NCBI GenBank assembly: GCA_031291825.1
Contig: JARLIG010000009.1
Coordinates: 65,281-129,280 of the forward strand
Source: Minisyncoccota bacterium
GTDB lineage: Bacteria > Patescibacteriota > Minisyncoccia > Phycocordibacterales > UBA9973
Reading direction: 5' to 3'
DNA length: 64,000 bases
The position numbers were made by a program, and so were the translations under genes. The notes below the pieces were generated by a model. It did not search any database. It saw nothing but the letters and a program-made list of their open reading frames with translations, and was not told the DNA's origin. Numbering within the stretch: position 1 is the first letter of the stretch; each line of letters begins with the position of its first letter. Of the stretch, positions 2,945 to 33,385 are shown one piece after another.

Positions 2945-4549
2945 TTATTGAAAACTACAGTTATTATCTAACGGCAAAGCAAGAGTGTTGAAAATATTCT
3001 GACAAATATTTTCAATGTCAGGCGTTTTAGTAAAAGTGTGGTCTTCACCTGCGTATGGAATAAACTGAACATTTTTTCCAGCTGTTTGTAGTGCGTTGTA
3101 AAGTAAGTTTGCCTGCGACGGAGGAACAGTTTTATCTGCTTGTGATTGCATTAAAACAACTTTTTGATTGGTCAAATTAGAGATGCGGGAAAGAATTGAT
3201 GCTTTGGCATAGAGCGCCGCATTACTTTTTCCAGGCAGGCCACCAAAATCAACATTGAAGATGGAGGTTCTTAACAGCTTAAGCATCACCGCCCAATCAG
3301 TGACTCCATTAATTGAAATTGCGCCACTAAATTTTGCAGGGTAAGCCATGAGACTACGTAATGCCAAATAGCCACCATAGCTATTCCCTAGTAAATATGT
3401 GTCAGAGATGGACATGTCTTTTTTTACTACGGAAAGTGCATTGACCACATCTGTCACATCACCCTTACCGACATTTTTTAAAATTTCTTTCGAATAAGCA
3501 ACACCATAGCCATAGCTTCCGCGATAATCCAATTTCAAAACAGCAACGTTATTTTCTGCTAACTGATTTAAAATCAGATCGTAAACTGCGTAACTGGCGT
3601 AATCATGATAGCCCAAGCTTGTTTGCCTGTATGGACCACCGTGTAGCCAAATCACCAGAGTATGCGGTGAATTTTTATCAAAATTAAGTGGAGTCATCAA
3701 AACTCCATGCATTCCTCCACCAAAATATATATCTGCACTATTTACGTCTACCGTAGTATTATCAGGAACAATTCCGGAAAAATTTTGTATTTGATTAGTA
3801 GTAGTATTATAAAATTCTGGGAAAGAAGAAGCTCCCTTGATGACAAAAAATGTTATGCCAGTATTCCAATTTCTTATTTTGAAAGCATAAGAAGCATTTT
3901 CCGTAATTATGGATGTAATCTTGGTTGTAAAATCATATTTATATAAATCCCATTCATAAGGACTCGCTTTGTTGGAAATAAAATATAAATTATTGGCAGT
4001 GGCTAAGTCAAAACCATTGACGGTAGTAGACTTCGAAAAAATTTTAATTCCTTTAAAGGCCTTACCTTTGAGCGTCGTCAAATCAAGCGAATAAAGAACT
4101 GGGTAACCACTCGAATCATCTTGATAAACCATCCGTGTTCCATCTGGAGAAAATGACACAATAGTTCCCTCGTCGCCCAAGGTATCCCAAGAACTGAGTT
4201 TATAACTTCGGGTGTAGGTTTTACCAGTCTGGTTGTCTGTCAGATATAAAGTTCTGAGGTGAACATTATTTTTAAAAACAGAGCTAGTAGTATAACTAAA
4301 ACGAGATGTGCTAGGAGTTCCAGTCGGCAACGTCGGCTCGGTTTTTCCTAAATCATTACAAGAAAGTGTGCTGACAGTGCAATTATAATAATCTGGTGTG
4401 TCGGTATTTCCATATTTAAGGATAAAGGAATCAGTCGTTTGCGAGAGAATATCTCCATAAGTAATTCCTGTGGCAAAAGAAAGCAGCGGAGAAAAAATTA
4501 TCATTCCCAAAATAAGAAGCTTATATTTATATTGTACCAAAAATCCCAT
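2945..4549 (-). CDS. secreted S9-family serine peptidase (prolyl oligopeptidase/acylaminoacyl-peptidase-like, beta-propeller plus alpha/beta hydrolase)
   Basis: N-terminal signal peptide; WLHGGP and GNSYGGYLA (GxSxGG nucleophile elbow); C-terminal Asp/His region. Confidence 0.7.
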   Translation of the reverse strand: MGFLVQYKYKLLILGMIIFSPLLSFATGITYGDILSQTTDSFILKYGNTDTPDYYNCTVSTLSCNDLGKTEPTLPTGTPSTSRFSYTTSSVFKNNVHLRTLYLTDNQTGKTYTRSYKLSSWDTLGDEGTIVSFSPDGTRMVYQDDSSGYPVLYSLDLTTLKGKAFKGIKIFSKSTTVNGFDLATANNLYFISNKASPYEWDLYKYDFTTKITSIITENASYAFKIRNWNTGITFFVIKGASSFPEFYNTTTNQIQNFSGIVPDNTTVDVNSADIYFGGGMHGVLMTPLNFDKNSPHTLVIWLHGGPYRQTSLGYHDYASYAVYDLILNQLAENNVAVLKLDYRGSYGYGVAYSKEILKNVGKGDVTDVVNALSVVKKDMSISDTYLLGNSYGGYLALRSLMAYPAKFSGAISINGVTDWAVMLKLLRTSIFNVDFGGLPGKSNAALYAKASILSRISNLTNQKVVLMQSQADKTVPPSQANLLYNALQTAGKNVQFIPYAGEDHTFTKTPDIENICQNIFNTLALPLDNNCSFQ

Positions 4550-4599
4550 TTACAAAGTATAACACAGTGAGAAAAATGACTTCTGGAAGTGGTGAATAT

Positions 4600-5709
4600 T
4601 TATGGACACAATGCACCGCTTAGAAAAACTGACGTAGTGTGGCCTGGACTAACTGAATCCACACACCAATTTTCTGAATTCGGGTTTGAAAAATTTACTC
4701 CGACAGCAAAAGTTTTTTCACTATCTTTGCAAACAAGATTTGTTCCACCTATTTCTTTTAGTTGATTAAGTCCAACCTCACCTTGCTTTGATAGACAAAA
4801 TCCGGAATATGAGGGTGTACTTTGAGGAAGCTGAAAACTAGCTGCTTCCGCACGAATATTGTTTAAATTCGCCTGTATTGATACTTCTTGTTGAGTAAAG
4901 TCTTGGAGCTTGTTAGCAATCATCGTAAATGCGGTTGTGTTTGCAATACCTGATACGCCAAGTTGGTCACCAACTAGAATCCTATACCTGACTGGATTTT
5001 TTCCAATTTGTGGAATAAATGTAGCATTAGTAATATCAACGTACCAATTATTACCAGAGTTTGAAACAACTATTGTATTTCCTGAAACAGAAACTAGTGT
5101 ACCCACTAATTGCGTAATGCCATTATTGCTAGTAATAGTTGAAATAGGTGTATTCGGTGTCGGTGTTACAGAAGTTGTGGGAGTTGGAATAGGAGTTGTT
5201 TGTGTTGGTGGTTGAGTCGTAATTGGAGACGTAGTTGGAGTTGGGATAGTTATTGGATTTGTAGTGACTACTGCTTGTGGTTCCGTAGGTGTTATTACTT
5301 TACTCGGAAAAAACTTTTTTATAATCGGCAAATTTACTAACTTATCTTTATAATAATAAGCAGAGACTCCTCCACCCGCTAATAAAAACAATACTAGTAC
5401 AAGAAAAAACATCTTACCACCAGAATGTTTTTTTATTTGAACTGGAGAAGAAGTTATAGGTTGATTTATGTTTTTATAGGAAGGTGGAATAAATGTATTT
5501 GGAGTTGTTGAAGGAAGAACAGAAACTGGGGCGACAACTACGCTCGGTGTTATGGGAGGGATAGCAGCTGGAATTACAATTGCGCTAAATCCTTCTTGGA
5601 TATCTTGCGCCGTCCAGCCGTTAGCTAGAAGGTCGCTAGTAATTTTTTCTTTAGGTAAACCTTTTGATAATTGCTGCCTAATAAAGTCTAACAATTGTTG
5701 GTTGGTCAT
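4600..5709 (-). CDS. hypothetical membrane-anchored protein with Thr/Pro-rich linkers
   Basis: Small N-terminal domain, one TM helix (FFLVLVLFLLAGG), long T/P-rich low-complexity segments, C-terminal Cys-containing domain. Confidence 0.4.
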   Translation of the reverse strand: MTNQQLLDFIRQQLSKGLPKEKITSDLLANGWTAQDIQEGFSAIVIPAAIPPITPSVVVAPVSVLPSTTPNTFIPPSYKNINQPITSSPVQIKKHSGGKMFFLVLVLFLLAGGGVSAYYYKDKLVNLPIIKKFFPSKVITPTEPQAVVTTNPITIPTPTTSPITTQPPTQTTPIPTPTTSVTPTPNTPISTITSNNGITQLVGTLVSVSGNTIVVSNSGNNWYVDITNATFIPQIGKNPVRYRILVGDQLGVSGIANTTAFTMIANKLQDFTQQEVSIQANLNNIRAEAASFQLPQSTPSYSGFCLSKQGEVGLNQLKEIGGTNLVCKDSEKTFAVGVNFSNPNSENWCVDSVSPGHTTSVFLSGALCP

Positions 5710-5744: not shown

Positions 5745-5834
5745 TGGCGGAGAGAGAGGGATTCGAACCCTCGGTCCTTTTAAGGGGACGACAGTTTAGT
5801 AAACTGTTGGTTTAAACCACTCACCCATCTCTCC
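5745..5834 (-). tRNA. type II (long variable arm) tRNA, Ser-like, apparent anticodon ACU (unusual)
   Basis: Reverse complement folds as GGAGAGA/TCTCTCC acceptor, GGGTTCGAATCCC T-arm, 3-bp D-stem, long variable arm, G73, encoded CCA; anticodon stem ACAGT/ACTGT with loop TTACTAA. Confidence 0.65.
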
Positions 5835-13532: not shown

Positions 13533-13548
13533 ATTTTTATTCTTCTTG

Positions 13549-13622
13549 TCCGTCCTCTTGGACTCGAACCAAGGACCCTCGAGGTATAAGCTCGATGCTC
13601 TAACCAGCTGAGCTAAGGACGG
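13549..13622 (-). tRNA. tRNA-Ile (UAU anticodon)
   Basis: Reverse complement CCGTCCTTAGCTCAGCTGGTTAGAGCATCGAGCTTATACCTCGAGGGTCCTTGGTTCGAGTCCAAGAGGACGGA has anticodon stem TCGAG/CTCGA with loop CTTATAC, A73 and C1:G72. Confidence 0.7.
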
Positions 13623-15588: not shown

Positions 15589-15647
15589 TCCAGTATATTA
15601 GCACAAAAAAACCGAAAGGTGAAATTCAGTTTATCTATAAATATCTG

Positions 15648-16036
15648 TGGAGATGGGGGAAATCGAATCCCCGTGCAGAAGGTAGTTGTAAAGAAGTCTA
15701 CATGCTTAGCGCGCTTTTTGGTTTAAATTAAAAAATTCTTAAACGTGCCAAATATTTTTTAATCGAGCTCTAAATTTTCGAGCGTATGTTCGAGCGGGCA
15801 ACGCCTTATCCCGATAATATTATGCCTCGTCTTATATATCGGAAGTCTATAAGAGAGACACCACCCTAGGCTTACGCGAAAGATGGAGCAAGAGCTAACG
15901 AGTTACCGAAGTAAGGCGAAAGCATTGCCGTGAAAGCTGATTTTGCAATTAGCTATTGAACGAATTTTTACGAGATTACGTTCATACTCGACATGCATCA
16001 ATGACAAATGGCCAACTGTCTATGCCTTGCATCCCC
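15648..16036 (-). ncRNA. ssrA: tmRNA (ssrA), one-piece
   Basis: Immediately downstream of smpB on the same strand; 5' GGGGATG pairs with 3' CATCTCC acceptor; T-arm GGGGATTCGATTTCCCC; internal tag-like reading frame ending ...LAPSFA-TAA. Confidence 0.65.
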
Positions 16037-31029: not shown

Positions 31030-31215
31030 TTACCAGCTTGATTTACGAACACCCGGAAGCATTCCTTCATTTGCTAATTCTCGAAAACAAATACGGCAAA
31101 TACCAAAGTCACGCATAAAAGCGTTGCCTCTTCCGCAACGAAAACATCGATTTTTCTGTCGAGTAGAAAATTTTGGTGTCTTTAAAGCTCTTGCTTTGAC
31201 TGATGTTTTTGCCAT
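31030..31215 (-). CDS. rpsZ: 30S ribosomal protein S14 type Z (zinc-binding)
   Basis: 61 aa with [23 protein letters not shown] zinc ribbon. Confidence 0.85.
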
Positions 31216-31437
31216 CCCATTAAAAAAATTAAAATAATAAACTTACTGCTTCTTACAAGTCCACTGATTTTCTAACGGGACAAGTAAATAATTACTGGGA
31301 TTGCTTCGTTAATATCTCACTTTTTTTCTTTAAGTCTTTAAAAGTAAAGATTCAAAGGAGAAAAATGGATTAATCAAAGCCCTATTCCCTTGCGTAGAAT
31401 ACTAGCAGATTAAAAACAATTAGTCAAACATATGTAC

Positions 31438-31989
31438 TTATTTACATATATAAGCTGGAGTAGAAATTTTCCATGCCCAACTAGAGAAAGATGTACCACA
31501 CTGAGTAACGGCACCACCCTCCCTGGCGGGGTCAATAAAAGTAGGATATTGGGCATACATGGAATTAGTCCAGCCAACATCCGAGATGGCGAGATCTAGA
31601 AGAGCATAATCGGTGCCATTAGATTTATAGAGATAACAACTAGTACTATTAGTTGCGTTCATAGTAGGGTCAGCGGGAAAAGTAGGCATATACGTAGAAA
31701 CAAGACCTGGAATAACTGCATTAGCAGCAAAACTACCCCAAGAAGCACATTGACTTTGCGAAGCCCCCCCAGTTGTTGGATATACTCCATAGTCATCATA
31801 GTAATTTTCTAACGCTGTTTGAATTTCTCTCATATCAGACAATCTTCTTGCGATGTTGGCCTTGAGACGTGCAGCATTGACACTAGATAAAACAATCGTG
31901 GAAAGTAGCCCAATAATGGCAACCACCACCAAAAGTTCAATTAAAGTGAAACCTCGATGAGTATTTTTATATGCTTTTAATAACTTCAT
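31438..31989 (-). CDS. type IV pilin (prepilin with class III signal peptide)
   Basis: MKLLKAYKNTHRG|FTLIELLVVVAIIGLLSTIV: leader ending in Gly, Phe+1, Glu+5, hydrophobic N-terminal helix; start chosen at the internal Met of the longer ORF. Confidence 0.7.
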   Translation of the reverse strand: MKLLKAYKNTHRGFTLIELLVVVAIIGLLSTIVLSSVNAARLKANIARRLSDMREIQTALENYYDDYGVYPTTGGASQSQCASWGSFAANAVIPGLVSTYMPTFPADPTMNATNSTSCYLYKSNGTDYALLDLAISDVGWTNSMYAQYPTFIDPAREGGAVTQCGTSFSSWAWKISTPAYICK

Positions 31990-31990
31990 C

Positions 31991-32251
31991 TTAATGAGGA
32001 TAGGTTGGGTTATTTTGATTAGTCGACTGTACGTTATTTGACACATCAAAGTGAATAAATAAAACAATAGAAACGACGACAATTAATATTATAAGTCCAA
32101 ATAAAATCCATTCTGCTTTTCGTGGGTCTTTTACTAATCCACCTGAATTTTTCATAATAAATAATATCACTGCAGGGGCAGCTGTCTCATCGTACAGTTT
32201 AATGGCTTTATATTTTTTAGTATTATTGGGAATTGGTGGTTGGTCACTCAT
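31991..32251 (-). CDS. small C-terminally membrane-anchored protein, MSDQPPIPNN family (paralog 2)
   Basis: 86 aa; identical N-terminus MSDQPPIPNN and homologous C-terminal TM region (AEWILFGLIILIVVVSIVLFIHF) to 32313-32726; stop is 1 nt from the pilin ATG. Confidence 0.5.
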   Translation of the reverse strand: MSDQPPIPNNTKKYKAIKLYDETAAPAVILFIMKNSGGLVKDPRKAEWILFGLIILIVVVSIVLFIHFDVSNNVQSTNQNNPTYPH

Positions 32252-32312
32252 GGTTATATTATATCTAAAATTATTTTAATGACAAGCACTAGAAGTATAA
32301 AATTTGCAATTA

Positions 32313-32726
32313 TTACGGAAAGGTTGAGTCAATTTTACTAGTTGGTGGTACAGGATTTGGGAGATTGAAGTGAATAAATAAAAACACAGAAAAAGCAACC
32401 ATTAATATTACAAACCCTAAGAGTATCGATTCTGCTTGTCTTTGAGTTTTAACTGCGCCTCTGGATAATTTCATAACCATTTTAACCATTCCTGGAGTAG
32501 CTTTTTCTTGATAAGCTGAGATAGCAGCTTGAGCGGATGTCGCCGTTAAAATATCAGTGTCAAAGCTGACTCCATCTATATCATTTTTTCTTGGAATTTC
32601 TGGAATTTTTGTAGTTGAAGCAGAAACTGCTTGTAAAGATTGTCCAGTGTGATATTTACTAGCTTCAAATTCTTTAAGAGCTGCGTCTATTTCAGCGTTA
32701 TTAGGAATAGGTGGTTGATCACTCAT
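32313..32726 (-). CDS. small C-terminally membrane-anchored protein, MSDQPPIPNN family (paralog 1)
   Basis: 137 aa; AESILLGFVILMVAFSVFLFIHF C-terminal TM; upstream region duplicated with paralog 2 (TGCTTGTCATTA...TATAAT-N6-ATG). Confidence 0.5.
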   Translation of the reverse strand: MSDQPPIPNNAEIDAALKEFEASKYHTGQSLQAVSASTTKIPEIPRKNDIDGVSFDTDILTATSAQAAISAYQEKATPGMVKMVMKLSRGAVKTQRQAESILLGFVILMVAFSVFLFIHFNLPNPVPPTSKIDSTFP

Positions 32727-32775
32727 GATTCTATTATAAAGAAAATATATATAATGACAAGCAAAAATACCCCCA
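32727..32775 (-). promoter_or_regulatory. sigma70-like promoter TTGTCA-N16-TATAAT with the -10 ending 6 nt before the ATG (leaderless-type); duplicated at 32252-32300
   Basis: Gene-sense TGCTTGTCATTATATATATTTTCTTTATAATAGAATCATG and, for paralog 2, TGCTTGTCATTAAAATAATTTTAGATATAATATAACCATG. Confidence 0.5.
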
Positions 32776-32815
32776 AAGTAGGGAGTATTTTGAGTTTTAA
32801 TTATTTATTTAAGGC

Positions 32816-33385
32816 TTATTTTTTCTTTTCTTCTCCTTTTTTAAAAGGAACTCCGAGAATTTCAAAAAATGTTGTACCTTCTTTTTTGTTTTTAGCAGTT
32901 GAAACTAAGGTAATAGACATACCGAAAACATCGCGGATGTCCTCATCAGCTGTTTCTGGAAAAATTGTATGCTCTTTTATGCCAATAGTCAGATTGCCGA
33001 TATTATCGACAGCTGTGCGATTAATGCCTCGGAAGTCTTTGGTTCGAGGTAAGGCAACATTTACTAATTTTTCAATAAAAGCGTACATTCTCTTGCCACG
33101 CAATGTGACAACAATACCGACAGGGTCCCCTTGGCGAATCTTGAAGGATGAAATGGATTGCTTGGCACCTCGCAAAGCACCTTTTTGTCCAGTAATTTTT
33201 GCCAAACGGTCTGCAATAGCGTCATTCTTGTTTTTGTCTTTCTTCATCTGTGTGCCAGTGCCACTGTTAACCACTACTTTTTTTAGTCGTGGAGCTGCCA
33301 TCGCATTTTTGAAATGAAAAACTTCTTTCATCTTTGGAAATGCTTCTGTTTCTTTTTCTTTAATTGTTTTATGTGTTGTTGCCAT
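32816..33385 (-). CDS. rplE: 50S ribosomal protein L5
   Basis: Canonical L5 length and motifs (RLKKVVVNSGTG...). Confidence 0.9.
   Translation of the reverse strand: MATTHKTIKEKETEAFPKMKEVFHFKNAMAAPRLKKVVVNSGTGTQMKKDKNKNDAIADRLAKITGQKGALRGAKQSISSFKIRQGDPVGIVVTLRGKRMYAFIEKLVNVALPRTKDFRGINRTAVDNIGNLTIGIKEHTIFPETADEDIRDVFGMSITLVSTAKNKKEGTTFFEILGVPFKKGEEKKK

Follow-up and report, generated by a model that had tools for sequence, protein, structure and literature searches.

By comparison across related genomes, the gap between the ribosomal protein genes rplE and rpsZ is a conserved, fast-turnover slot in Nomurabacteria, Pacebacteria, Zambryskibacteria, and their relatives among the Patescibacteria. 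In the DNA analyzed here (a stretch of 64 kb, referred to as the window), the slot holds a type IV prepilin gene preceded by two genes for small proteins, of 137 and 86 aa, that belong to an unannotated family to which we give the name FAM. Because FAM genes lie just upstream of pilin genes in most of ~100 loci, FAM is probably a new pilus helper. The rplE-rpsZ region is among the most conserved gene orders of bacteria; in the canonical spc operon, rpsN/rpsZ directly follows rplE within a single transcription unit. Here, this order is reproducibly split by a fast-evolving surface-protein cassette that has its own, apparently leaderless, promoter, and the downstream ribosomal unit has gained a promoter and a structured leader RNA of its own.

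Layout of the rplE-rpsZ gap

All positions are given within the window, and all cassette and flanking genes lie on the minus strand (Table 1). Read along that strand, the order is rplE, FAM-A, FAM-B, prepilin, 222 nt, and rpsZ; instead of the canonical junction, 1,600 nt separate rplE from rpsZ and contain, besides the three genes, one terminator-like hairpin and three promoter-like sites. The exact locus also occurs in SRR23300977-80. What the original prediction stated about the sequence of this interval (31216-32815), with its rplE, paralogs, pilin, and rpsN, proved accurate throughout, and the NCBI annotation (Candidatus Pacebacteria bacterium, P4L63_02210, P4L63_02205) contains identical products of 137, 86, and 183 aa. 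rplE closes the ribosomal transcription unit on the upstream side; by ORF order, rpsZ opens the downstream unit, rpsZ-rpsH-rplF-rplR-rpsE...secY. With a GC content of 0.36 versus 0.39 for the window, the cassette shows no compositional anomaly, and a foreign origin on grounds of composition was rejected. Profile and prepilin-motif scans detected no additional pilins or FAM copies within the window, and pilB, pilC, or pilD did not turn up among the minority of its ORFs that were compared with a family library.

Table 1. Features of the rplE-rpsZ interval, listed in minus-strand order (positions within the 64-kb window)
Feature	Position	Strand	Basis
rplE (ribosomal protein L5)	32816..33385	-	Pfam Ribosomal_L5 1e-14 and L5_C 2e-29
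Terminator-like hairpin and T-run, just past the rplE stop	32770..32784	-	Consensus scan: TCCCTACTTTGGGGG then TATTTTTG
Putative FAM-A promoter, TTGTCA-16 nt-TATAAT	32733..32760	-	11/12 match to sigma-70 consensus
FAM-A, 137 aa	32313..32726	-	Profile match to FAM family
Putative FAM-B promoter, TTGTCA-16 nt-TATAAT	32258..32285	-	11/12 match to sigma-70 consensus
FAM-B, 86 aa	31991..32251	-	FAM-A paralog; profile match to FAM family
Type IV prepilin, 183 aa	31438..31989	-	N_methyl and TIGR02532 scores over cut-off
Putative rpsZ-unit promoter, TTGACT-17 nt-(TG)cTAGTAT	31399..31427	-	Consensus scan
Structured rpsZ leader RNA, 102 nt	31294..31395	-	RNAalifold and covariance model
Extra hairpin module before the rpsZ ATG	31216..31279	-	MFE fold
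rpsZ (zinc-type S14, 61 aa)	31030..31215	-	Pfam Ribosomal_S14 3e-23

In many related loci, a GC hairpin and T-run similar to the one behind rplE precede the FAM promoter. At both FAM-A and FAM-B, the -10 box ends 6 nt ahead of the ATG, a geometry (TATAAT-N6-ATG) that recurs at other loci, where 26 of the 35 good promoters preceding FAM genes show it, and that further first genes of the window share. Since TATAAT lies so close to the start codon, FAM transcription is predicted to be leaderless, the start being implied by promoter geometry. When promoter and gene are aligned together, FAM-A and FAM-B match in a way that indicates duplication of the promoter along with the gene start. The putative rpsZ promoter is near-invariant across 26 aligned loci and, together with the leader, divides the spc operon here into separate transcription units. 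A single base separates the TAA stop of FAM-B (31993-31991) from the pilin ATG at 31989, and this 1-nt distance keeps the translational coupling that had been proposed plausible but not demonstrable. Shine-Dalgarno sequences are absent before nearly all genes of the clade: only 1 of 70 pilin genes is preceded by one, and the ribosomal genes of those loci also lack them. The absence of such a sequence before the pilin was therefore rejected as evidence of coupling.

Judged by motif, profile, and predicted fold, the 183-aa protein is a type IV prepilin. Its bit scores are 35.5 for Pfam N_methyl (cut-off 21.2) and 35.7 for TIGR02532 (cut-off 16.3), in keeping with the initial prepilin call. The sequence reads MKLLKAYKNTHRG up to the cleavage site and FTLIELLVVVAIIG beyond it (the cleavage region is also given as MKLLKAYKNTHRG followed by FTLIELLVVVAIIGLLSTIVL), and has a class III signal peptide: a short basic leader with Gly as its last residue, F+1, E+5, and a hydrophobic helix. 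The AF2 model (pLDDT 89.3, pTM 0.80) has the lollipop shape, with a 52-residue N-terminal helix (16-67) and a β-sheet head (strands 118-123, 128-133, and 172-176); each of its ten best Foldseek matches in the PDB, although weak (E 0.075-0.77), is a type IV pilin or a pseudopilin. Proteins of the type IVa subclass have leaders shorter than ~10 aa, mature lengths of ~150-175 aa, F+1, and a C-terminal disulfide-bounded region. Set against these features, the cassette protein has a mature length of 170 aa, F+1, and a C-terminal Cys-x18-Cys-Lys, together with a 13-aa leader (the mode among 70 related cassette pilins is 9 aa) and a head whose divergence is too high for a subclass assignment. It shares with type IVa pilins and GspG pseudopilins the class III signal peptide, the long N-terminal helix, the β-sheet head, and the C-terminal Cys...Cys loop, but differs from them in its leader length, in the high divergence of its head, and in the embedding of its gene between ribosomal operons; the NCBIfam GspG model covers residues 12-75 only, at 46.8 bits versus a cut-off of 88.85.

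The FAM family and its linkage to pilins

FAM-A and FAM-B share the N terminus MSDQPPIPNN and are 43% identical in an alignment of the C-terminal 79 aa (E = 9e-15), which bears out the proposal that these proteins of 137 and 86 aa, with a common start and a C-terminal transmembrane (TM) segment, are paralogs. The two small ORFs match the FAM profile at 6e-44 and 4e-25; on these scores, they are true family members, far above chance. The family comprises 1,509 clusters at 50% identity (E <= 1e-3), a word-indexed search returned 198 matches, and every named match is from Patescibacteria. Only scattered chance matches were obtained in Pfam with both paralogs and all 120 aligned FAM members, in NCBIfam and PDB sequence profile searches, and in a Foldseek search with the FAM model. 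By the reach of these searches, FAM is a large, previously undescribed family without a Pfam, NCBIfam, or PDB relative. Our literature search on pilin cassettes within CPR spc operons found nothing relevant; the “novel pilus system in CPR” of a 2026 preprint is unrelated, its pili being of the donor-strand-exchange type.

In FAM-A, an acidic helix at the N terminus (NAEIDAALKEFEA) is joined through a disordered linker to a basic juxtamembrane helix, which is followed by a TM helix (~96-120). The AF2 model of FAM has helices at 11-26, 61-73, and 79-87 and a TM helix at 95-120 with pLDDT >90, in a model of low overall confidence (pLDDT 67.6, pTM 0.33). The nearest relatives of FAM-A are a homolog at locus L002 (59% identical) and the L113/L114 homolog (144 aa), and the gene directly behind it is FAM-B, not the pilin. 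FAM-B begins with the same first 10 residues and then shows a clean in-frame loss of ~57 codons, which takes out the acidic helix and leaves the juxtamembrane helix and TM; short forms of this kind are normal family members at other loci. A conservation map places the conserved core of the family in three elements: the juxtamembrane helix, which is basic and amphipathic, an SGG hinge, and the TM helix. The TM helix has a Glu at the cytoplasmic boundary (96% of members) and one face made up of small residues (G, A, S). In many members, a flexible linker connects this core to the acidic amphipathic helix NxEIDxALKEFE, a motif doubled in the L023 protein; as this helix is missing from many pilin-linked FAMs, the conserved core is the membrane part.

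A single hydrophobic segment is present (FAM-A, residues 96-124; FAM-B, residues 43-74), the stretch of 85-95 residues at the N terminus is hydrophilic, and the tail after the TM has a median length of 24 aa. With one C-terminal TM and no N-terminal signal, FAM is predicted to be a tail-anchored membrane protein with its N terminus in the cytoplasm; the K+R count is 2.95 before the TM versus 1.79 after it (120 members), a positive-inside bias so modest that the topology is predicted, not certain. The possibility that FAM is a degenerate pilin was rejected: HHalign against 70 cassette pilins gives a probability of 0.8% and FAM has no prepilin cleavage motif, in line with the earlier statement that the small proteins are not pilins.

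Our comparison set consisted of 112 related Patescibacteria loci with 97 unique FAM genes, 91 of which could be scored (unique, with at least 300 nt of downstream sequence). In 73 of these 91, the next gene on the same strand encodes a prepilin, at a spacing of -23 to +23 nt; five of the exceptions have only a second small TM gene between FAM and pilin. In a reverse test, all four pilins picked by pilin similarity alone turned out to have a FAM gene directly upstream (hmmsearch E 1e-21 to 1e-51). The pair occupies at least seven unrelated genomic sites (between L5 and S14, between SIMPL and secE-nusG-rplK, at infC-rplT/smpB, gyrA...rpsA, and infB-rbfA, between VanY and RecG, between RNR and MurJ, and between ksgA and a transposase); on the evidence of gene order, FAM and pilin move as a unit. 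The original prediction had proposed a search for FAM genes next to pilins in relatives and had tied FAM functionally to the adjacent pilin; the linkage, co-movement, and reverse test speak for such a tie, and the proposal withstood the refutation it had set for itself (paralogs spread over the genome without pilin linkage, or missing from relatives that keep the pilin). The functional evidence is gene adjacency, and a FAM role in pili or competence is a tentative reading of it.

FAM-pilin pairs are often repeated in tandem (L003, L008, L014, L016, and L017). Some loci have FAM without a pilin (L002, L023/L096, L098, and L025) and others have one FAM before two to three pilins (L015, L026, and L063), so FAM is not a strict one-to-one pilin chaperone. 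A mirror-tree comparison of FAM and pilin carried little information, its distances being saturated: the Spearman coefficient was 0.09, and the distances did not correlate with those of L5. Among the related loci, no cassette lies inside a pilB, pilC, pilM, or pilD operon, and pilM is near a cassette only in L119, 1.5 kb away.

The original prediction described the cassette as inserted; a private event is contradicted by the occupancy of this very slot, with rplE on one side and rpsZ on the other, in at least 43 distinct related loci and by its own promoters. L5 and/or S14 stand beside 53 of the 59 FAM genes with a recognizable flank. Turnover within the slot is evident in three lineages that have an identical S14 protein and three different cassette contents and in the divergence of FAM and pilin (55-59%, versus 21% for L5 and S8). 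Toxin-antitoxin-like genes also occur in the slot (L005, L013, and L017). In Ca. Yanofskyibacterium (Paceibacteria), L5 and S14 are consecutive with nothing between them (supplementary gene table, PMC10936435), and the cassette is absent from the metatranscriptome supplement of the same paper.

A structured leader upstream of rpsZ

The rpsZ leader folds into one long hairpin of irregular shape, in which the segment UUUCUCCUU / AAGAAAAAA and two C.A positions are invariant. RNAalifold finds 19 pairs, 12 of them with compensatory changes; 96.2% of cells are paired versus 27-58% in slid controls, and none of 500 shuffles equaled the observed values. A covariance model scores 96.9 bits at the window and 55-100 bits over the window and 43 loci, with a single match upstream of rpsZ per locus and none in loci without rpsZ. 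The rpsN leader, regarded as new in the original prediction, is in fact a structured RNA conserved upstream of rpsZ in 43 other loci. Between it and the start codon, the window has an extra hairpin module that pairs right up to the last base before the rpsZ ATG; leader-to-ATG spacing is 73-84 nt in 8 other loci versus 0-20 nt in 31. The best Rfam match of the leader, preQ1-II, is on the opposite strand and reaches 20.7 bits versus a gathering threshold of 47, and its assignment to a known RNA family was rejected. No 16S or 23S rRNA was found in the 64-kb window.

Ribosomal-protein leader RNAs have narrow distributions (PMC3616713). The rpsZ leader shows their characteristics, structure with covariation in a 5′ UTR, and is on this basis a candidate for ribosomal-protein autoregulation, a clean and new one: none has been described for the phylum in the literature searched, where we found nothing relevant on a CPR ribosomal-protein leader. 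In Escherichia coli, the spc operon is autoregulated through a leader in which S8 binds near the rplE start. Like that leader, the rpsZ leader is structured and lies upstream of a ribosomal operon that includes rpsH (S8); unlike it, the rpsZ leader is placed before rpsZ instead of rplE, differs in sequence and structure, and has no Rfam family.

Possible roles of FAM and comparison with known systems

We lean toward a model in which the locus is a self-contained pilin cassette in a variable slot and FAM acts as a tail-anchored membrane partner of the prepilin. A strong promoter opens each cassette and would give rise to a leaderless mRNA that starts with the FAM gene and includes the prepilin gene a few bases on. 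From the predicted topology, we infer that the FAM TM and juxtamembrane part would sit beside the near-invariant N-terminal helix of the prepilin in the cytoplasmic leaflet, where FAM could stabilize the prepilin, hand it over, or gate it on its way to processing or assembly, and that the acidic helix might dock a cytoplasmic partner, e.g., PilM, PilB, or the peptidase. An ancestral single FAM-pilin pair, as still found in L113/L114, was expanded here through duplication of promoter and gene start, leaving an orphan FAM-A and an internally deleted FAM-B beside the pilin. A more ambitious version, which we consider rather doubtful, makes FAM an obligatory, lineage-specific T4P adaptor or anchor in a large branch of Patescibacteria, the slot a pilin-variation locus, and the downstream operon subject to an undescribed leader RNA. 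If this version were true, FAM-pilin cassettes would be swapped in the slot to alter surface or host specificity, FAM would either couple the membrane prepilin pool to the cytoplasmic machinery or anchor the filament, and the slot would be insulated from both ribosomal operons yet lie between them.

FAM could instead be a membrane-tethered regulator or sensor that follows the prepilin pool through its TM and feeds back on pilin or pilus genes, its acidic helix sequestering or releasing a cytoplasmic factor; Pseudomonas PilS, which monitors PilA in the membrane, would be the model. The tether-like build (a short acidic amphipathic helix, a disordered linker of 20-50 aa, and one TM), the duplicate acidic motif in L023, the retention of FAM where the pilin is lost or broken (L010, the first cassette of L017, L013, L023, and L002), and the option of several pilins per FAM would suit such a role, which we nevertheless judge improbable: many members, among them FAM-B and the short proteins of L115, L117, and L119, keep their pilin linkage without the acidic helix, DNA-binding, anti-sigma, or kinase domains are not detectable in FAM by Pfam, PDB profile, or NCBIfam searches, and a consistent nearby regulator gene was not found among the related loci. 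Tandem FAM-pilin repeats, the presence of a pilin beside FAM at every non-ribosomal site, and the joint movement of the pair argue against a general protein of the translation/secretion neighborhood, such as a Sec/YidC accessory, with pilins landing in a permissive gap. The FAM architecture (amphipathic helix, hinge, tilted TM, and tail anchor) does recall small translocon subunits, FAM-only loci exist both at rplE-rpsZ and by secE-nusG-rplK (L002, L023, L098, and L025), and the toxin-antitoxin-like genes in the slot mark the gap as permissive. However, a genuine SecE is separately present, FAM diverges 2.5 times as much as the flanking housekeeping genes, and Ca. Yanofskyibacterium keeps L5 and S14 adjacent (PMC10936435), all of which leave this explanation with little probability.

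The same membrane geometry could place FAM at the pilus base, where a pilin-mimicking TM under the last pilin would anchor or terminate the filament because the large cytoplasmic part cannot exit the membrane. The predicted orientation, which is that of the prepilin N-terminal helix, the boundary Glu (cf. pilin E5) and small-residue TM face, and co-expression with the pilin from a single mRNA are consistent with this idea, but the lack of profile similarity to pilins and of a cleavage motif, along with a Glu register relative to the hydrophobic core that on inspection of the consensus is unlike that of pilins, makes it very improbable, and we regard it as purely speculative. A membrane partner of the prepilin remains our preferred description of FAM.

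To our knowledge, almost nothing is known about the pilus biology of the huge Paceibacteria branch, and a pilin-coupled family of >1,500 clusters outside the annotation libraries readily suggests itself as the missing pilus factor and offers an experimental handle. Attachment of ultra-small Patescibacteria to their hosts, and the exploitation of these hosts, are believed to depend centrally on type IV pili (PMC6744442, PMC9894109). Among the known components that FAM calls to mind in its predicted bitopic, N-in orientation and short conserved cytoplasmic peptide is PilN. PilN, encoded in pilMNO operons, has an INLLP-type PilM-binding peptide, an N-proximal TM, and an extracytoplasmic domain of ~150 aa. 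FAM has no INLLP-type motif; many members do without its own peptide, NxEIDxALKEFE, the TM of FAM lies at the C-terminal end, the short tail leaves almost no external domain, and its genes accompany pilins, away from the machinery genes.

The best functional analogy is with the TfpY/TfpX/TfpZ (FimB-like) accessory proteins that Pseudomonas aeruginosa shares with other Pseudomonadota and that are encoded next to the major pilin and co-vary with it (PMC11841053). TfpY-like proteins are small and membrane bound, with an unknown biochemical function; they are needed for optimal pilus assembly and likely contact the major pilin but are absent from the filament (PMC11841053). They have 235-245 aa, a short cytoplasmic N terminus, three TMs, and a periplasmic globular domain, and their genes lie downstream of pilA (PMC11841053). 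FAM likewise is a small membrane protein encoded beside a pilin gene, but it departs from TfpY in TM count, size, and gene position: FAM proteins have 85-150 aa, a single C-terminal TM, and a bulk that is predicted to be cytoplasmic, and FAM, found in Patescibacteria only, is encoded upstream of the pilin as the first gene of the transcript.

Linkage of a small membrane protein family to type IV pilins

FAM-A and FAM-B, the two paralogs encoded between rplE (L5) and rpsZ (S14) in this Candidatus Pacebacteria MAG, represent an unannotated family of small membrane proteins (FAM) whose linkage to type IV prepilin genes is family-wide. The linkage was followed through related Patescibacteria loci (L-numbers), 26 of them taken from genomes representing species and 80 from metagenomes, with a few others added; HMMs of FAM and of the window's ribosomal proteins served for annotation. 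These loci hold 97 unique FAM genes. For 91 of them the contig continues for 300 nt or more downstream, and in 73 of the 91 a GFTLIELL-type prepilin gene follows directly on the same strand, at a spacing of -23 to +23 nt (70 unique pairs measured). Five apparent exceptions (L015, L055, L076, L080 and L101) have FAM2, a distinct family of small single-TM proteins, interposed between FAM and pilin. In the reverse direction, four homologs of the window pilin picked on pilin similarity and contig size alone (P0251, P0256, P0257 and P0260) all have a FAM member immediately upstream (hmmsearch E 1e-21 to 1e-51). The association proposed in the original prediction is thus borne out in relatives. Its description of the locus (order, ORFs, paralogy, prepilin) proved correct throughout on rechecking, and its statement that the small proteins are not pilins is upheld by a profile comparison that found no homology between FAM and pilins. 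FAM2 itself (60-78 aa, motif IYYxxSDxFLG...VVFFxxDYLxH) was found at 15 places, always within a cassette of FAM and prepilin genes, where it either separates the two or directly precedes FAM; this window has no copy.

Single-sequence searches with the window's small proteins found only 2 relatives, a profile of the first four sequences matched 198 proteins, and when 1.8 billion cluster representatives were searched exhaustively with an HMM, 1,509 matched at E <= 1e-3, of which 570 also passed E <= 1e-10; the named ones are all from Patescibacteria (Nomurabacteria, Paceibacterota, Zambryskibacteria, Berkelbacteria, Parcubacteria). No Pfam domain was found in 120 members, no NCBIfam relative of either paralog and no relative of the family profile among PDB sequences. 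Conservation falls into three blocks: an N-terminal NxEIDxALKEFE, predicted to form an acidic amphipathic helix; a middle VEGVxF[DE]T...YxA[VI]K[FY]YxET, present in long forms only; and a core, PKMVKLVMKxSGGx[IV]KxQ[RK]QAE[YW][IV]LLGF...S-L-[YF]-L-F. An AlphaFold2 model from a 120-sequence alignment (overall pLDDT 67.6) has helices at residues 11-26, 61-73 and 79-87, disorder at 27-60 and a confident TM helix at 95-120. The tail-anchored, N-in topology originally proposed is the best prediction because FAM has a single hydrophobic segment, no signal peptide, somewhat more positive charges before the TM than after it (2.95 versus 1.79) and a short external tail (median 24 residues). The acidic helix is missing from the more distant members, which are short (89-97 aa), so that juxtamembrane helix and TM together make up the family core. 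One member carries the acidic motif twice in tandem, which would fit a short linear binding motif open to multiplication.

The paralogs have their first ten residues in common and are 43% identical over the C-terminal 79 (E = 9e-15). In the DNA alignment, FAM-B resembles FAM-A minus ~57 codons, lost cleanly and in frame, and the promoter was duplicated along with the gene; given the short forms elsewhere in the family, FAM-B is an ordinary minimal member and no wreck. The neighboring prepilin scores above the curated cut-offs of both Pfam N_methyl and TIGR02532. Its relatives number more than 2,600, all belong to Patescibacteria and are variously labeled GspG-like or prepilin-type. Its confident AF2 model (pLDDT 89.3, pTM 0.80) combines a 52-residue N-terminal helix with a small beta-sheet head; the best PDB matches, with weak scores, are gonococcal PilE, C. 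difficile PilA1 and PilW, and GspG/PulG/EpsG. The protein is a genuine type IV pilin whose head has diverged, and the "IVa" label is a reasonable but tentative one.

Coordinates of features in the window and in related loci
Feature	Position	Strand	Remarks
rplE	32816-33385	minus	
Terminator-like hairpin and T-run	32784-32770	minus	
FAM-A promoter-like site, TTGTCA-16-TATAAT	32760-32733	minus	11/12 vs sigma-70 consensus
FAM-A ORF	32726-32313	minus	137 aa
FAM-B promoter	32285-32258	minus	Near-identical to FAM-A promoter; 11/12 vs sigma-70 consensus
FAM-B ORF	32251-31991	minus	86 aa
Prepilin ORF	31989-31438	minus	183 aa; 1 base after FAM-B
Non-coding stretch	Prepilin to rpsZ	minus	222 nt
rpsZ promoter, TTTGACT-N17-TGCTAGTAT	31427-31399	minus	
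rpsZ promoter and ~100-nt structured leader	31294-31427	minus	Also upstream of rpsZ in L002-L114
Extra hairpin, leader to rpsZ ATG	31216-31279	minus	Pairs right up to start codon
rpsZ	31215-31030	minus	
TATAAT-like box exactly 6 nt before ATG	6811	plus	
TATAAT-like box exactly 6 nt before ATG	63950, 41537, 18908, 5709, 6773	minus	
tmRNA	15645-16036	minus	Full length; Rfam RF00023, 115 bits
tRNA-Ile(TAT)	13548-13622	minus	
tRNA-Ser(ACT)	5745-5834	minus	Adjoins tRNA-Ser(GCT) on opposite strand
FAM2 (examples; others too)	L013:5740-5976; L025:985-1206; L080:4005-4235 and 4589-4807; L015:6568-6780; L055:573-809; L101:420-656		
FAM member with tandem NxxIDxALKEFE	L023:5965-6345		
FAM-pilin pair, then Y1 (IS200-type) transposase gene	L119:1734-2408 and 3151-4269		Outside ribosomal context
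Toxin-antitoxin-like pairs in rplE|rpsZ gap	L005:5102-5901; L013:7001-7596; L017:6981-7534		
Start of L002	L002:1-500		Only last ~37 codons of rplE ahead of FAM gene

An autonomous unit in a conserved slot

FAM followed by pilin forms an autonomous, probably leaderless, transcription unit, and promoter geometry marks FAM as its first gene. A promoter match of at least 9/12 precedes FAM in 35 of 50 unique upstream regions, and in 26 of the 35 exactly 6 nt separate the -10 hexamer from the ATG; this hexamer is in most cases a perfect TATAAT, often with TG in front. Under standard sigma-70 geometry this spacing places the transcript start at the A of the start codon, so that FAM mRNAs are predicted to be leaderless. 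Several other first genes in the window have the same geometry, which is therefore a habit of the organism and no peculiarity of the cassette. A Shine-Dalgarno sequence precedes 1 of 70 pilins and is essentially absent before ribosomal genes of the related loci too; this lineage seems generally to initiate translation on leaderless mRNAs or without an SD. Since both gene classes lack it alike, the 1-nt spacing of FAM-B and pilin suggests the translational coupling originally proposed but cannot prove it.

The rplE|rpsZ position is a conserved slot with fast-changing contents, with a terminator or promoter at one edge and a promoter plus leader at the other. L5 lies upstream and/or S14 downstream of 53 of the 59 unique FAM genes with a recognizable flank; most of the rest sit between a SIMPL-domain gene and secE-nusG-rplK, and further sites adjoin infC-rplT, gyrA...rpsA, infB-rbfA, recG, murJ or ksgA. 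The slot holds one or two FAM-pilin cassettes, FAM with up to three pilins, FAM alone, broken pilins or toxin-antitoxin-like pairs; in three lineages S14 is 100% identical to the window's, yet the slot contents differ. The arrangement is FAM-A and then FAM-B-pilin in this window, FAM only in L002, and pilin, FAM2, FAM, FAM2, pilin in L080/L112, while L113/L114, with a single 144-aa FAM (MSDQPSIPNN...) and a pilin 69% identical to the window's, probably preserve the ancestral state. Between loci, divergence is 55-59% for FAM and pilin and 21% for L5 and S8. The slot is not universal in the class, because S8, S14 and L5 are consecutive in the gene table of Ca. Yanofskyibacterium (supplement of PMC10936435).

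The DNA of L002, a close relative, aligns with the window from directly past the pilin stop (84.5% identity). Its truncated rplE is preceded by the end of an unrelated gene and by a perfect 10-bp palindrome (CTGTAGAGTA..TACTCTACAG). Either this rearrangement is real, or the metagenome contig is a chimera. The toxin-antitoxin-like pairs, assigned by eye from translations as AbrB/MazE-like plus MazF/PemK-like, suggest that the gap is a permissive landing site. A pilM gene lies within 1.5 kb of a FAM-pilin cassette once only, 1.5 kb downstream of the pair in L119, the sole case seen with a pilus machinery gene nearby.

A structured RNA upstream of rpsZ

In an alignment of 26 loci upstream of rpsZ, the promoter is nearly invariant and is followed by a long irregular hairpin of ~100 nt. 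RNAalifold finds 19 pairs, 12 of them with compensatory double changes; 96.2% of cells pair, against 27-58% with sliding partners, and 0 of 500 column shuffles reach the observed values. In the invariant UUUCUCCUU/AAGAAAAAA segment, U-A pairs are broken by two C.A oppositions. Folding the window's own sequence to minimum energy gives the same structure (-43.1 kcal/mol, z = -3.15). From the trimmed alignment a covariance model was made; right before rpsZ it has a single match of 55-100 bits in the window (31294-31395) and in each of 43 loci, at least 17 of them outside the seed, and none in loci without rpsZ or elsewhere in the 64-kb window. The leader ends 0-20 nt from the ATG in 31 loci and 73-84 nt from it in eight; the window (78 nt) belongs with the latter, in which an extra hairpin reaches the start codon. 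The long leader noted originally for rpsN/rpsZ is not new to this genome. No Rfam family matches it, and no description was found in the literature searched. Comparison with the E. coli spc operon, which S8 controls, makes it a candidate for a new ribosomal-protein autoregulatory leader in Patescibacteria.

Elsewhere, the window encodes a tmRNA and two tRNAs detected by ARAGORN and confirmed as tRNAs by Rfam, whose anticodons, TAT (Ile) and ACT (Ser), are unusual among bacteria.

Possible roles of FAM

The related loci turn a single-genome curiosity into a lineage-wide architecture with two undescribed elements of putative function, a family of tail-anchored proteins coupled to pilins and a structured leader RNA of rpsZ. 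The original interpretation of paralogs and pilin holds and extends across these loci, with the function of FAM a prediction only. We posit that FAM sits N-in in the cytoplasmic membrane, where its conserved juxtamembrane helix, boundary Glu and small-residue TM face would lie at the depth of the prepilin leader, cleavage site and E5, and that it could stabilize, present or gate the prepilin there; the acidic helix, in members having one, may recruit a cytoplasmic partner. A strict one-to-one chaperone is disfavored because some loci have FAM only and others one FAM with several pilins. Less probably, FAM could be a regulator or sensor, a filament-base anchor, or a general membrane protein of the translation-secretion neighborhood. 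In function, FAM would most closely resemble the pilin accessory proteins of the TfpY/FimB class, which likely contact the major pilin and promote assembly but are not part of the filament (PMC11841053); the two share neither sequence, size, topology nor gene order.
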